Of a stretch of DNA of 64,000 bases, positions 1 to 4,797 are shown one piece after another. The translations under genes and the position numbers were made by a program. How positions within the stretch are numbered: the stretch's first letter is position 1; each line of letters starts with the position of its first letter. This stretch comes from a phage. A model generated the notes under the pieces. It did not search any database. It was not told the origin of the DNA and saw nothing but the letters and a program-made list of their open reading frames with translations. The stretch is from assembly GCA_036930585.1 (NCBI GenBank), contig GCA_036930585.1_3066.1. One strand, given 5' to 3'.

Positions 1-962
1 CGATATGTATGACGGGGAGATGTGGATTCTTTAAATCGTTTTACATCTTCATTAAATGCTTTCTCACTGAGTTCTTTAACTCGTTCAATAATATTTTTAC
101 GAGTACGATCATCCAGTGAAAGAGCCTCGCGAGATGGAGCAATATCAAGTGAACCCATTGGAAACTTAATGTAATTCACTTCATTGCGAATGCTTAGCCA
201 GTTACGGTCTCTAATAACACCATCGATAGGATAAACAATACCGCCATAGATAGCATATAATCCACCACGATCAGGCCAGTATCTTTCTGGATTTACACCG
301 TAATAGTCATCAAAATCCGGAAAATAATCAATTTCGCGGTCAAGACCATTAATGATAGCCAAATCTTTGAACGGTCGCATGATATAAGAAACTTCATAAG
401 CAAAGTTTCTAAAGTCTTTTTCTTCAACTGGAACTACGATTTCAATACCAGTTTTATCATCTGGACCCATTTCTTTTACGAATGTAGGTTTAATCTGTGG
501 GCCATCACCATCCATGTAAGCTACATAACCACGAATTTCACCTTTATGATACGAAGTAATACTAAATGTATCAGTATAACTAAACGGAGATTTAGAACCT
601 AAACCAAATCCGCCAATAAAGTCATTAGATTCAGCTTTAGATGAACTGAAGTATGAATTATACAACCCAGGAGAATTATCATCACCTTGAATATCAAAAT
701 CGCTCATACCTGGACCAAAATCTCGACAAACAAATCGCGGATCTAATCGTCCTGGAACTTGAATGATAAATTTTTCAGGATTTCCATTGAGAGCATGGGC
801 ATCAATCATGTTGGTAATCAATTCACGGACTACTGCGCGAATCTTGTTTGTATACAAATCAGATGACAGAATTTTGAATACTTTAGGAGATGCTGTGATG
901 CTAAATGCCTTTGATTTAGAACCATTGCCAAGAATTGTTTCTTTTTCAGTGGTGATAATCAT
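1..962 (-). CDS. rIIA: rIIA protein, N-terminal part (gene continues beyond window start)
   Basis: ATG at 962 (minus) opens a frame that runs off the window edge; translation [56 protein letters not shown]... matches the T4 rIIA N-terminus (GHKL-type ATPase region). Absent from ORF track because no stop lies in window. Confidence 0.85.
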
Positions 963-972
963 AATTTCCTCA

Positions 973-1176
973 TTAATTCATATTGCGTTTAATAACTTCA
1001 GCAACTTCTAGTAATTCATCTTTAGTTGCGGTGTCGGATTGAATTTTATCTCTAATAGCCTTAAAGCGGTTTTTAAACTCTTCGGCTTCTCCCATATCGA
1101 AAAAGCGTTGAATGATTCTATATTCTCGATGAACTGCTTTATCAAAAAGTTCTAAATTTACTTTATATGATTTCAT
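973..1176 (-). CDS. small hypothetical protein (rIIA.1 position), 67 aa
   Basis: ATG-initiated ORF between gene 60 and rIIA; position-based assignment. Confidence 0.55.
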
Positions 1177-1201
1177 TTCAATATCCTCATTTGCCCAATT
1201 A

Positions 1202-1233
1202 ATTATACCACATCCTTGTGGTAAAGTAAACTA
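1202..1233 (-). promoter_or_regulatory. T4-type early promoter (-35 GTTTAC, 18-nt spacer, -10 TATAAT) overlapping gene 60 stop
   Basis: minus strand reads GTTTACtttaccacaaggatgtggTATAAT; identical 32-nt copy at 46673-46704. Confidence 0.5.
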
Positions 1234-1763
1234 CTGGCTCATCCATTCTTTACGAAGGTCAGCATTATCTCCCATGAGCATTTCAAAAAGTTCTTTCCAA
1301 TTCTCAGGAAGTTTAACAACATCATATACTGGATTTTGAATCATCTCACGATATTCAGATTTTTCCAAAGAGCCAAGTCCTTTAATATAACGGATGCTAT
1401 GTTTAGGTAGAGCATCTTTGGCACTCTCATATTCAGCGACTGTATAAAACCATTCTTGTTTTTTACCGACCTGAGCGATGATTACAGGAGTTTTGACGAA
1501 GCGAATTCTTCCTTGTTCAAACAGTTCTGGCCAATTACTAAAAAATCCGAGCAGAGAAGGATAAATAGAACCTAATCCAATAATCTCTTAATTATGAGGT
1601 ATTTCTATAGATAGCCCGAAGGCTATCCATCGTGATCTGCGTCTGTCATAATAGCGACATTCGCATAGTTCATTGAAGAGGATTTAATAGAACGACGAAC
1701 ATTGTTCTGCAATTTATATTTTTTCATATCAACGCTAGAAGAATCAATTTTTACAAATTTCAT
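1231..1763 (-). CDS. 60: DNA topoisomerase II small subunit gp60, decoded with 50-nt translational bypass (codons 1-46 at 1626-1763, resumes 1231-1575)
   Basis: N-terminal MKFVKIDSSSVDMKKYKLQNNVRRSIKSSSMNYANVAIMTDADHDG ends at take-off GGA followed by TAG; after the 50-nt gap the frame resumes LGSIYPSLLGFFSNWPELFEQGRIRFVK...RKEWMSQ; SD GAGGTG upstream of ATG. Confidence 0.9.
1576..1625 (-). other. gene 60 ribosomal bypass (hop) element: 50-nt coding gap between take-off GGA (1626-1628) and landing GGA (1576-1578), with UUCG-loop hairpin
   Basis: minus strand reads GGA UAG CCUUCGGGCUAUC UAUAGAAAUACCUCAUAAUUAAGAGAUUAUUGGA UUA, the classical T4 gene 60 bypass sequence. Confidence 0.9.
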
Positions 1764-2562
1764 TATACACCTCATAGAACTTTTCATCAGGAATCCAACC
1801 GCGTTTAAATTCATTAAATGCTCGGCCGAATAATTTTGAATTCACAGTTATATTATTAACTGATTTCCATTTAGCAACTCCCGTTCGTTTATAATGATCG
1901 GGGTCATATTTCGTGACGTACCATTCATATAAATTTGGTATTAATTTTACAGCCTCTGGATTTGTCGCTGATTTATTATACCATGGTTTCGCTTTTTCAA
2001 GTTCAGCTGCTTTTGCAGTAGCAGCAACAGTATTTCCAATACCAACTAATTTTTCAGCTTTAATGCGTGGGTCATTAACATGAAGACGAAAAACTTCGCC
2101 TTTTTCATTTTTAAAGCATGTCATGCCTTTAATTCCAGGAAGCTTAACACCTTTATTAACGCCGCACCATTCCTTTGGGTTAAATGATCCTTTAATTAAT
2201 AAGGCGCATTTACCCGATTTAATACTTCTCATTAAAACTTTATTTTTCATAAAGTTTTTTGACCATTCAGATACTGCTCTTTGATGGTAAATTCTAGCAA
2301 TTTCATATAATTTACTAGAACGTAAATATTTTTCAGTGTTTAACATTCTATTCATCGCATATGCCATTTCACGATTACGATGAATTTTATATAGTAGAAA
2401 ATGTGCTAAAAAGTGTTCACGAAAAGTCAGTTTCACCAAATTTTCTTTATCATCAGAACCTCCCATTGATCTTGGAAGGATATGATGAATTTCACCCTTA
2501 AATTTAGAAACGCGGGTTTTACCCCGCGCTATTAAGTCATTATAGATTTTTTCGTAATTCAC
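1744..2562 (-). CDS. mobA: HNH homing endonuclease (MobA-like), 272 aa, sitting between gene 39 and gene 60
   Basis: HNH motif region EIHHILPRSMGGSDDKENLVKLTFREHFLAHF; overlaps the 3' end of 39 and the 5' end of 60; only GTG available as start (no in-frame ATG near 5' end). Confidence 0.7.
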   Translation of the reverse strand: MNYEKIYNDLIARGKTRVSKFKGEIHHILPRSMGGSDDKENLVKLTFREHFLAHFLLYKIHRNREMAYAMNRMLNTEKYLRSSKLYEIARIYHQRAVSEWSKNFMKNKVLMRSIKSGKCALLIKGSFNPKEWCGVNKGVKLPGIKGMTCFKNEKGEVFRLHVNDPRIKAEKLVGIGNTVAATAKAAELEKAKPWYNKSATNPEAVKLIPNLYEWYVTKYDPDHYKRTGVAKWKSVNNITVNSKLFGRAFNEFKRGWIPDEKFYEVYNEICKN

Positions 2563-4090
2563 CTACTGTTATCCATTTACCATTAATCTGTACTTCATCA
2601 TTTTCATTTACGATAATTGTATCGCCATTTAGTTCGAAAGTAAACCACTCGCCATCTTCTTTTTCTTCAAACGCCTTTTCACCGAGAACTAATCCAGTGA
2701 TTGCGCAAATATCAAACAATTCTTTGTTTTTAAGCATATCAGCATATGACATACCCCAACTGTTGAGAACTTTACCGCGCAATGGATAACCACCATGAAG
2801 TTCTTTATCACGAACATCAATAAGATATCCGATAGCAGAATCACCCTCAGTCAAGAAAAGAGTAGTGTCAGCATCTTTACCGCAAAGATTCGCTTTAATG
2901 TGTTTATGAACCTTAGCTTTAGAAGCCTTTTTAGCTGCTTTAGTTTCTGCTGCCTTTTCTGCCGCCAATTTACGAGCCAAAGCAGCTTCAATAATCGGCA
3001 TTAGAATTGCTTCATTATTTAGAATAGCACGTGAAATCTTTTTAGCATCAAGTTGAATATGACTACGGATTTCACCAAATGGAGAAGTCAAACGCTCTTT
3101 AGTTTGAGAATCAAATCGCATGTTTTTCATATCACGGACAAACATAACGATAGTCAAACATTCTTTAACGCGTGCTTTAGTCACATCAATTTTGAACTTA
3201 CGTTTGATTTGTGGAATAAGGTCTTCACAAATATCATCCATAACACAGTCAATGTGATGGCCACCATTCTTAGTGTGAATGTTATTCACATAAGTTAATT
3301 GACGAAAACCATCCGGTGAACGACCAACCGCAATAGAGCAATTTTCTTGTTCTTGAACGATAGCATGTTCATCATATTGGCGTGCATATTTCTTAAAATT
3401 GCCCTGAACCTTTTTACCATTAAAGGTAAATTGAATATCAGGATAAACTACTGCAAGTGTCTGGAGACGATCTAGTGTAATGTCAAGATAAACTTGGGAC
3501 AGCTCATTAGTTTCAAATGACATAAAATCAGGAATGAAAGTAACACGAGTTCCTTTCCATTTTCCAGGAATAGTTTCCCATGATTTATTTTCCATGCCAT
3601 TTGAACAACGAACTACAATATTATTTTGACCATCACCAGTTTCACCGACAAACATCACAGAAAAAATGTTTGTCAAACTAGAACCAACACCATTCATACC
3701 ACCGGTGACACGTTCTTTATCATCACCAAAGTTACCACCTGCTTTTGGAATAGTCCAGGCAGCAACAGGACCAGGAATTTCTTCACCAGTAGGTGTTTTG
3801 ACCATCGCTTGTGGAATACCGCGACCGTTATCTTCAACTGTTACTTGATTGTTTTTAATAGTAACATTAATTTTATTTGCGAATTTAAACTTAGTACGAA
3901 TACCTTCATCTACTGAGTTATCGATAATTTCATCAATAAGCTTAACAAGACCAGGTACATACTGAACACTTTCCCATTTACCAAACAGAAAGCGCTCATG
4001 CATTTCATTAGCAGAAGAGCCAATATACATGCCGCTACGCTTTTTGATATGTTCAATATCGCTCAGAATTTTAATTTCATTCTTAATCAT
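2540..4090 (-). CDS. 39: DNA topoisomerase II large subunit gp39 (GyrB-like ATPase), 516 aa
   Basis: translation MIKNEIKILSDIEHIKKRSGMYIGSSANEMHERFLFGKW...; GHKL ATPase motifs (VEDNGRGIP); ATG at 4090 preferred over track GTG at 4093. Confidence 0.9.
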   Translation of the reverse strand: MIKNEIKILSDIEHIKKRSGMYIGSSANEMHERFLFGKWESVQYVPGLVKLIDEIIDNSVDEGIRTKFKFANKINVTIKNNQVTVEDNGRGIPQAMVKTPTGEEIPGPVAAWTIPKAGGNFGDDKERVTGGMNGVGSSLTNIFSVMFVGETGDGQNNIVVRCSNGMENKSWETIPGKWKGTRVTFIPDFMSFETNELSQVYLDITLDRLQTLAVVYPDIQFTFNGKKVQGNFKKYARQYDEHAIVQEQENCSIAVGRSPDGFRQLTYVNNIHTKNGGHHIDCVMDDICEDLIPQIKRKFKIDVTKARVKECLTIVMFVRDMKNMRFDSQTKERLTSPFGEIRSHIQLDAKKISRAILNNEAILMPIIEAALARKLAAEKAAETKAAKKASKAKVHKHIKANLCGKDADTTLFLTEGDSAIGYLIDVRDKELHGGYPLRGKVLNSWGMSYADMLKNKELFDICAITGLVLGEKAFEEKEDGEWFTFELNGDTIIVNENDEVQINGKWITVGELRKNL

Positions 4091-4143
4091 CACTTATCCT
4101 CGTTTGGTTTCGGGAATATTATACTCCGGTAATCATAAAGCTA

Positions 4144-4165
4144 AAGGCCCGAAGGCCTTTTATTT
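4144..4165 (-). terminator. stem-loop with UUCG-type loop followed by U-run (intrinsic terminator / RNA-stabilising hairpin)
   Basis: aaaggcccgaaggccttttattt. Confidence 0.5.
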
Positions 4166-4420
4166 AAAACGAATAGTCGAATCCTTGAAGAATAGTCCAG
4201 AACATACTGTTCCTTCTACTTTCTGCCCAGTAGGTCCAATAGCACGAAATCCAGTACGCTGGAAATCATTTTCAGAGCAACCGAACCAATTATATCCAGT
4301 GATTTCAATATTAGTAAAACCACTTGAAGACAAAACTTTGGTTGCATTATCAGCATCAGTACATCCTATTAAAGACACTGCTAATACTAATGCTGCGATA
4401 GAACGATTAATATATTTCAT
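4160..4420 (-). CDS. putative lipoprotein, 86 aa (signal peptide with LIGC lipobox)
   Basis: MKYINRSIAALVLAVSLIGCTDA...; ATG at 4420 preferred over track GTG at 4429. Confidence 0.6.
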   Translation of the reverse strand: MKYINRSIAALVLAVSLIGCTDADNATKVLSSSGFTNIEITGYNWFGCSENDFQRTGFRAIGPTGQKVEGTVCSGLFFKDSTIRFK

Positions 4421-4425
4421 AATTT

Positions 4426-4797
4426 TCACTTAAATTTAATGGCTTGAAGAAGACTAATAACTCTCAAGCGGCTTCTTTCATCTTTAACTGTAAAGGAAAG
4501 AGGGTCACCAGATTTCATAGTGATAGTGCATTCAAAATCAAAATCTTCGGGAACTTCTTCGAATAGATCAAATTCTTCATCATATATTAGAACATTACTC
4601 TGAAAACTGTGAAGAATTTTTCCGTCATTTCCAGATGCTGTACTAATCATTGTAACGTTATTACCTTTCATATCTTCAACGATAAATTCGCTTGTAGATA
4701 TTACATTACTAATAGAACCATTCCTATAAATAGCAGAAAATAGATATTTCTTTTCTTCACCTTCGCGAATGCGATATTTCTTACCGATTTTAAACAT
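4426..4797 (-). CDS. hypothetical protein, 123 aa
   Basis: ATG-initiated ORF in operon context. Confidence 0.55.
   Translation of the reverse strand: MFKIGKKYRIREGEEKKYLFSAIYRNGSISNVISTSEFIVEDMKGNNVTMISTASGNDGKILHSFQSNVLIYDEEFDLFEEVPEDFDFECTITMKSGDPLSFTVKDERSRLRVISLLQAIKFK

Follow-up and report, generated by a model that had tools for sequence, protein, structure and literature searches.

Bypass signals in gene 60 and an uninterrupted mobA reading frame in the split topoisomerase gene of a T4-like phage

Phage T4 carries gene 39, mobA and gene 60 side by side, and gene 60 contains a 50-nt segment that ribosomes cross by translational bypass (Huang et al. 1988; Weiss et al. 1990; Bonocora et al., PNAS 2011). 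MobA elements of clade 1 are 1097 to 1106 nt long, are accompanied by a 64-nt deletion, supply a C-terminal extension (CTE) of about 44 aa, contain a HomR that is 67% to 81% identical to the deleted segment, and include 9 extra nt past the landing codon (Manning & Atkins, bioRxiv 2022).

We examined a stretch of phage DNA of 64,000 nt, which we refer to as the window. Positions 1-4500 were read together with a list of their open reading frames, and the order on the minus strand was found to be rIIA (partial, up to position 960), rIIA.1 (1176-973), gene 60, an HNH ORF, and gene 39 (4090-2540). The region is almost certainly a T4-type clade 1 MobA mobile element that interrupts the gene for the large subunit of topoisomerase II in a T4 relative. 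The anatomy of the element, its identity to T4, the intactness of all of its parts and the comparison with an empty site were observed directly, and nothing in the sequence speaks against this reading. The features of the locus are as follows.

2540-4090, minus strand: gene 39 (ORF1), 516 aa, which encodes the N-terminal portion of the large subunit of topoisomerase II and includes a GHKL ATPase, GyrB domain 2 and the TOPRIM glutamate (LTEGDSA)
2543-2671, minus strand: CTE, a 43-aa tail at the C-terminus of gp39 that is encoded by the element, FEEKEDGEWFTFELNGDTIIVNENDEVQINGKWITVGELRKNL, which follows GEKA (aa 473) and has no counterpart in Shigella phage ESh29
1567-2672, minus strand: the whole MobA mobile element, 1106 nt in place of 64 nt, from an ungapped comparison with the mobA-less phage ESh29
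1744-2562, minus strand: mobA, HNH homing endonuclease ORF with the HNH core EIHHILPRSMGGSDDKENLVKLTFREH (H27, N41, H50), assigned by homology to PHROG 655 and T4T
2509-2530, minus strand: predicted 8-bp GC-rich hairpin (fold prediction), 10 nt past the gene 39 stop codon and within mobA codons 11-18
1626-1763, minus strand: gene 60 segment 1 (codons 1-46), a 30-aa element-specific NTE with KYKLQNNVRRSIKSSS plus the 16-aa HomR, with 100% nucleotide identity to T4T
1626-1673, minus strand: HomR, MNYANVAIMTDADHDG, 16 aa, identical at 36 of 48 nt to the deleted ESh29 segment
1639-1664, minus strand: 5' stem-loop GCGAAUGUCGCUAUUAUGACAGACGC upstream of the take-off site, present in the minimum free energy (MFE) and centroid folds of 1770-1480
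1607-1630, minus strand: take-off stem-loop, 10 bp with a UUCG tetraloop, which holds the take-off GGA and the UAG
1576-1625, minus strand: 50-nt coding gap, the same as the T4T feature 'non-coding translational bypass region'
1231-1575, minus strand: gene 60 segment 2 (codons 47-160 and the stop codon), LGSIYPS...KEWMSQ, of which the first 9 nt (1575-1567) belong to the element
1511-1554, minus strand: predicted host-encoded 3' stem-loop region (forward slippage barrier, FSB), an RNAfold prediction, with synonymous changes at 1524 and 1516

The product of gene 39 matched the Pfam families HATPase_c (1.3e-9) and DNA_gyraseB (1.2e-13), and the gene has the same length as the gene 39 CDS of T4T, from which its product differs at 4 amino acids. 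The original prediction held that a mobile cassette had split an ancestral GyrB-like gene and proposed an alignment to a contiguous version of the gene. We performed this alignment with Shigella phage ESh29, which lacks mobA and contains a single contiguous topoisomerase ORF of 605 aa, and the split was confirmed. The 5' part of gene 39 is 99.9% identical to ESh29, and the alignment ends abruptly: in the ungapped comparison there were no mismatches from 4568 to 2676 and one at 2675, after which the identity collapses from 2672 and resumes at 1566. Because the identity to ESh29 breaks at 2672 and 1567, these 2 positions delimit the element, and 1106 nt have taken the place of 64 nt. The insertion point is located after residue 473 (GEKA) of the contiguous topoisomerase, which agrees with the interval of residues 466-473 of Topo2L characteristic of MobA elements, and as a result of the split the TOPRIM glutamate (LTEGDSA) is found in gp39 and the DxDxD motif (TDADHDG) in gp60. 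Furthermore, the CTE of 43 aa, the NTE with HomR of 30+16 aa, the total length within 1097-1106 nt, and the existence of an empty-site relative are all as described for such elements. The parental ESh29 segment LNYHNIAIMTDADHDG and HomR are 75% identical in nucleotide sequence. It was also noted that T4T and BF15 differ from the window at 2692-2691, only 19-20 nt outside the edge of the element; together with the ESh29-type left flank, which covers 1.9 kb and extends to about 3 nt from the edge, these differences would imply, for a recent homing into an ESh29-like backbone, that there was almost no 5' co-conversion.

Between the reading frames of genes 39 and 60, and overlapping both, a 272-codon HNH ORF had been predicted. 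This ORF was found at 2562-1744 on the minus strand; it is uninterrupted and shares 23 nt with gene 39, whose stop codon is at 2542-2540, and 20 nt with gene 60, in both cases out of frame. Since the in-frame triplets TAA-CAG-TAG directly abut the GTG start codon, a start further upstream is impossible, and with a start at the next in-frame ATG, which is M33, the HNH motif would lose its first histidines. The GTG, noted as the only start in the original prediction, is thus the sole canonical start codon that keeps the motif, and the same GTG-started CDS of 819 nt is annotated in T4T. With an HNH motif in an uninterrupted frame of 272 aa, the protein falls within the range of 269-279 aa for MobA. 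It matched the PHROG 655 'homing endonuclease' profile (1.1e-57) in an alignment that begins at residue 1. Other similarities were weaker: the match to the Pfam HNH family (7e-4, 20.1 bits) was below the gathering cut-off of 21.4 bits, the search of NCBIfam gave only a sub-threshold match to the HNH of IscB, and a search of PDB sequences gave only weak matches to the HNH core, in which EIHHILPRSMGGSDDKENLV aligned with the HNH region of a maturase from a group II intron; the NCBIfam and PDB matches add nothing to the HNH motif itself.

The ribosome-binding context of mobA is weak, consisting of a Shine-Dalgarno-like GGA triplet about 9 nt upstream of the GTG. The predicted hairpin at 2530-2509 was not called as a terminator in a terminator scan, and it may be an RNA-stability or attenuating element. 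Low or regulated expression of mobA is plausible from these sequence features. The caution in the original prediction, that expression from a GTG start is open, is fair as far as it goes; it is not specific to the window, since the same start codon was found in all close carriers examined. A scan for promoters gave fewer promoter-like sites than in shuffled sequence, and a TTTACT-17-TACAAT site at 2644-2616 was not counted as evidence that mobA is transcribed.

Compared with mobA of T4T, the gene is 99.25% identical in nucleotide sequence, with 6 nucleotide differences of which 3 alter the amino acid (A12V, N107D, A169T). That half of the differences are non-synonymous suggests a weaker constraint than on the topoisomerase. 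In the T4 reference record (AF158101/NC_000866), mobA is labeled a pseudogene, with 11 single-base insertions, mostly of G. The insertions are missing from both T4T and the window, and the remaining T4 records align without any change in length. Bonocora et al. reportedly found the mobA ORF to be intact as well. The exact MobA protein of the window, with the same neighbors, was found once in the public assemblies searched, in a 4.5-kb contig from an independent sequencing run.

These features bear on the possibility that the cassette is an immobile relic, in which the bypass works, mobA is silent or inactive, and homing has been lost. The weak Shine-Dalgarno-like element ahead of the only start codon that retains the HNH motif, the stable hairpin within the first 18 codons, the 3 amino acid differences from T4T, and the pseudogene label in the T4 reference annotation could all be taken in its favor, as could the stepwise loss of the endonuclease in several lineages (Manning & Atkins, bioRxiv 2022). 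However, the 272-codon ORF is uninterrupted with H27, N41 and H50 intact, the PHROG alignment from residue 1 indicates that the GTG yields a full-length protein, and the pseudogene of AF158101 reflects the 11 insertions described above. Moreover, according to the account of Bonocora et al. 2011 given by Manning & Atkins, intact MobA is active and highly efficient in homing in mixed infection, and a recent transfer of the element from one backbone to another is indicated by the flank, which is identical to ESh29 almost as far as the element begins. We consider a relic possible but disfavored, and rather improbable. MobA in the window would instead be active, to judge from the experiments on T4.

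All coordinates originally proposed for the hop in gene 60, including the take-off GGA, the UAG, the UUCG hairpin, the 50-nt gap, the landing GGA and the frame resumed there, proved correct on the minus strand. The ATG start codon of gene 60 is located at 1763-1761 and is preceded by GAGG. The first 46 codons read MKFVKIDSSSVDMKKYKLQNNVRRSIKSSSMNYANVAIMTDADHDG and end with the take-off GGA at 1628-1626, which is directly followed by the UAG at 1625-1623. The take-off hairpin, AUGGAUAGCC-UUCG-GGCUAUCUAU, spans 1630-1607, with 10 bp, a CC-UUCG-GG tetraloop and the take-off GGA within the 5' arm. In an RNA fold of 1640-1570 (71 nt), which contains this hairpin, the MFE was -17.5 kcal/mol (z = -2.0), and 5 of 200 shuffled sequences folded equally well. 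The landing GGA is located at 1578-1576, and the mini-Shine-Dalgarno triplet GAG at 1587-1585 precedes it by 6 nt, in agreement with the distance of 5-7 nt, in AU-rich sequence, described for bypass sites. Counted from the UAG through the landing GGA, the gap is 50 nt long (1625-1576), whereas 47 nt separate the 2 GGA codons. In-frame sense codons in place of the UAG and the hairpin, which would speak against a bypass, were looked for; both signals are present, the gap between the matched GGA codons is non-coding and contains stop codons in all 3 frames, with just 3 open codons in the landing frame ahead of the landing GGA.

The 46-aa leader is the same as in T4 and includes the nascent-peptide signal KYKLQNNVRRSIKSSS; the residues Y16, Q19, V22, R24, Y33, M39, T40 and H44 were all found in it. 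A role has been described for the 5' stem-loop upstream of the take-off site (Manning & Atkins, bioRxiv 2022). After the landing GGA, the gene 60 frame reads LGSIYPSLLGFF and continues until the TAG at 1233-1231. This resumed frame (DHDG/LGSIYPS... across the junction) is colinear with the contiguous protein of ESh29, and the joined product matched the Pfam family TOPRIM_C (6.4e-8). Experiments on the identical T4 sequence indicate that ribosomes would bypass the gap and produce a single polypeptide.

A reading in which the 50 nt are not hopped, and are either removed from the RNA in the manner of an intron or separate 2 polypeptides made by termination at the UAG and downstream re-initiation, is very improbable. 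A stable hairpin in the 5' part of the gap and the GAG triplet 6 nt ahead of the landing codon, which could in principle serve re-initiation, are compatible with it. Yet no RNA family, intron or other, exceeded the Rfam gathering threshold anywhere in the window, and ARAGORN found nothing there; none of the start codons ATG, GTG and TTG occurs where landing takes place, and only 3 codons are open in the landing frame before the GGA. Furthermore, for the identical sequence in T4, mass spectrometry has shown a bypass product that lands at this GGA.

The bypass cassette is strongly conserved. The alignment to T4 gene 60 and mobA that had been proposed was run, and the 197 nt at 1567-1763, which cover the 5' part of gene 60 and the gap, were 100% identical in 27 records including T4 and T4T, and at least 97.5% identical in 42; because of the identity in 27 records, the cassette cannot be due to chance. 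The gp60 protein is identical to that of T4T at 160 of 160 residues. In nucleotide sequence, the 3' segment of gene 60 is 97.7% identical to T4T, with all 8 differences synonymous, and purifying selection thus acts on the resumed frame. Gene 39 is 96.8% identical to T4T. With identities to T4T of 99.25% for mobA and 100% for the 197 nt, the element shows stronger conservation than the flanking sequence (96.8% and 97.7%), as would be expected for a cassette that spreads laterally, and the combination of a conserved cassette with an ESh29-type left flank fits a movement of the element between backbones. An error of sequencing or assembly as the cause of the interruption, or a recent inactivation of gene 60 in this phage, is the least credible of the alternatives, having nothing specific in its favor beyond the splitting of gene 60 into 2 'genes' by automated annotation in many relatives (e.g. 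BF15), and facing the same 197 nt base for base in 27 independent records, the assembly of the exact MobA and its neighbors from an independent public sequencing run, and the purely synonymous changes in the downstream frame.

In a megablast search of positions 4200-1100 against 50,697 phage records, 519 records of the Tequatrovirus type were matched. The whole query was contained in 42 of these 519 records, among them T4, T4T, RB55, RB59, HY01 and BF15, at 97.3% to 98.1% identity; the 5' part of gene 39 was carried by about 504 records, and the whole cassette by 42. Diverged cassettes of about 72% to 81% identity were found in Salmonella S16-like, Proteus and Shewanella phages. A search of the IMG/VR viral contigs for the exact 53-nt pattern from GGA to GGA gave no match, and the cassette is therefore not common in IMG/VR. 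The 25 kb of adjoining sequence showed at most about 97% identity to any record. Judged by these identities, the window represents a T4 relative (Tequatrovirus) that is about 97% identical to T4, and not T4 itself. In T4T, the homologous stretch is annotated as gene 39, mobA (H-N-H homing endonuclease, 819 nt, GTG) and gene 60 joined from 2 pieces. Several public relatives, e.g. BF15, have parts of gene 60 and mobA annotated as unrelated small 'hypothetical' genes.

Downstream of the landing site, the RNAfold energy of 1578-1480 was -13.3 kcal/mol in the window, compared with -20.0 in T4T and -20.6 in ESh29, and the synonymous changes are thus predicted to weaken the 3' stem-loop in the window. 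This stem-loop is regarded as poorly conserved (Manning & Atkins, bioRxiv 2022). We suggest, tentatively and with considerable doubt, that the phage could have arisen naturally and very recently, when MobA homing or recombination brought the element into an ESh29-like backbone, in which a weakened 3' stem-loop stands beside an invariant cassette. If true, this would provide a ready before-and-after pair for the study, under natural conditions, of co-conversion tracts and of how much the forward slippage barrier contributes.

For the clade 1 MobA element, the following course of events would apply. An element of 1106 nt has taken the place of 64 nt in a contiguous GyrB-like gene, cutting inside the TOPRIM domain. 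It gives the upstream half, gene 39, a 43-aa tail, encodes the HNH homing endonuclease MobA, and provides gene 60 with a new start codon, a 30-aa leader, the 16-aa HomR and the 50-nt coding gap. During translation of gene 60, ribosomes would stall and rotate at GGA-46 ahead of the UAG under the influence of the take-off hairpin and the nascent peptide. This peptide, together with the UUCG hairpin as it forms in the A site, would also favor release of the peptidyl-tRNA-Gly from the mRNA, sliding would be driven by EF-G, and the tRNA would re-pair at the GGA 47 nt downstream, aided by pairing of the GAG mini-Shine-Dalgarno with the anti-Shine-Dalgarno. In the literature on T4, the reported share of ribosomes that finish the hop is about one half, mass spectrometry of the bypass product shows landing at the same GGA, and cryo-EM and kinetic studies describe the sliding ribosome. 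The hop would yield a gp60 of 160 aa, and gp39, gp60 and gp52 would form the topoisomerase.

In a mixed infection, MobA would nick the uninterrupted genes of the T2 or ESh29 type within the region equivalent to HomR, and repair would copy the element into them. Located some 20 nt away from the site of nicking, the gap would shield the carriers against self-nicking; such self-protection is suggested here by analogy with the identical T4 sequence. Nicking by MobA, self-transfer and protection by the gap are attributed to Bonocora et al. 2011 in the account by Manning & Atkins.

The arrangement is the textbook T4 gene 60/MobA cassette, which is already known, and the window is one more clade 1 carrier. 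The finding adds only another carrier, because 42 comparable records are already public. The expectation that novelty would be limited was correct: published work already covers the phenomenon as well as the element with its boundaries and distribution. Programmed translational bypassing has its classic case in the gene 60 hop, the origin of which is explained by the MobA cassette. For annotation, the practical consequence is that gene 60 should be joined across 1625-1576 and mobA started at the GTG at 2562. The points specific to the window are the ESh29 pair, which is an unusually clean pair of occupied and empty sites that leaves existing knowledge unchanged, and the predicted weakening of the 3' stem-loop (from -20.0 to -13.3 kcal/mol).

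Among known systems, the 'byp' elements in the mitochondria of Magnusiomyces capitatus resemble the locus in that inserts of 27-55 nt are bypassed between matched take-off and landing codons, with a slow-to-decode codon in the A site. They differ from it in being mitochondrial, in occurring in many copies per genome, in being unrelated in sequence, and in having no link to an endonuclease. A closer parallel in its mobile part is MobE of the Aeromonas phage Aeh1, which is also a free-standing HNH homing endonuclease inside an essential gene, nrdA; the halves of the split nrdA likewise bear element-derived tails and reassemble into an active enzyme. However, MobE has another target gene and does not involve translational bypass.

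[quoted passage not shown] They are about 68% to 81% identical to the window in nucleotide sequence and have other codon pairs, loops and gap lengths, and the window is not among such variants.

From T4 itself, the window differs in that MobA is 3 aa off the T4T protein, that the backbone is not that of T4 (gene 39 is 96.8% identical, and the left flank, 4568-2676, is 100% identical to ESh29), that the predicted 3' stem-loop is weaker, and that the 11 extra mobA bases of the T4 reference record are absent. It is like T4 clade 1 in the following: the 5' segment of gene 60, the gap and gp60 are identical, mobA has the same length and the same GTG, and the overlaps agree, as do the element (1106 nt), the deletion (64 nt), the CTE (43 aa) and the stretch of 9 nt that follows the landing codon.

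Judged from the sequence, the locus of the MobA element, the 1106-nt insertion (2672-1567) that splits the topoisomerase gene into genes 39 and 60, is mosaic: its left and right flanks match different phages, and hardly any donor-type sequence is present 5' of the element. The left flank (2676-4568) showed no mismatches over about 1.9 kb to the mobA-less Shigella phage ESh29, and this identity reached the edge of the element. The right flank (1231-1566) carried 9 differences from ESh29 and 8 from the cassette carrier T4T; its closest matches (99.0%) were further phages without mobA, among them SF2-1 and KFS-EC3.

Within the right flank, 4 synonymous alleles between positions 1498 and 1524 (C1524, A1516, A1509, and C1498) were found in none of T4T, ESh29, or phage BF15, another carrier. 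Two of these were located in the 3' stem-loop predicted to form past the gene 60 landing site, and they made this structure less stable in the prediction (about -13 rather than about -20 kcal/mol). Directly 3' of the gene 60 stop codon and upstream of rIIA.1, we also noted a good predicted match to a sigma-70-type promoter on the minus strand (1202-1230, TTTACT-17-TATAAT, with an extended -10 TG).

At the other end of the element, a fold was predicted early in mobA, the gene for the HNH homing endonuclease, starting 10 nt past the gene 39 stop codon:

2509-2530, minus strand, predicted 8-bp GC-rich hairpin followed by UUCUAAAUUU, mobA codons 11-18

The A12 codon of mobA was GCG in the window, a window-specific variant, and GTG in T4T, which changes a U-G pair in the stem to C-G. 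The hairpin was not called by the terminator scan; as a predicted structure, it could attenuate or stabilize transcripts entering mobA.

The following regions of public records were noted for their versions of mobA and gene 60:

AF158101.6 (T4 reference record), 1972-2768, annotated as "mobA pseudogene" and "gene 60.1", compared with T4T
Phage BF15, 2738-3270, example of the split gene 60 annotation, also seen in other relatives

The "mobA pseudogene" and "gene 60.1" are produced by 11 single-base insertions together with 5 substitutions. Neither T4T nor the window carries any of these changes, and the other T4 assemblies aligned without length change. On these alignments, the differences look like legacy sequencing error rather than biology. 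In many records, gene 60 is represented by 2 unrelated small genes ("small subunit" and "subunit") or by hypothetical proteins instead of a joined CDS, and mobA is frequently labeled "hypothetical protein" in relatives, which is a problem of annotation and not a difference in sequence.

Residues 60-112 of MobA showed a weak, sub-threshold similarity to the C-terminal domain III of the T4 baseplate protein gp6 (Pfam PF21871, E = 6.5e-4, 20.1 bits against a cut-off of 27 bits; PDB 9f4a, E = 0.14). This similarity is probably a chance match between helices.

A further endonuclease was identified in another cassette carrier:

Escherichia phage CJY920, PQ349265.1, 3155-3967, second HNH endonuclease region

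In this phage, the end of gene 60 is separated from rIIA.1 by an additional insertion of about 890 nt, which encodes a 270-aa HNH endonuclease (…NYTETHHILPKSMGGSNAKSNLV…) different from MobA, so that 2 homing-endonuclease genes flank gene 60. Across the window (1-64000), MobA was the sole HNH-type ORF detected by tblastn, a simple motif search found no GIY-YIG endonuclease, and no tRNA was found. No Rfam family reached its gathering score, and the window is therefore taken to contain no group I intron. Homing elements seem to be fewer in the window than in the equivalent stretch of the T4 genome.
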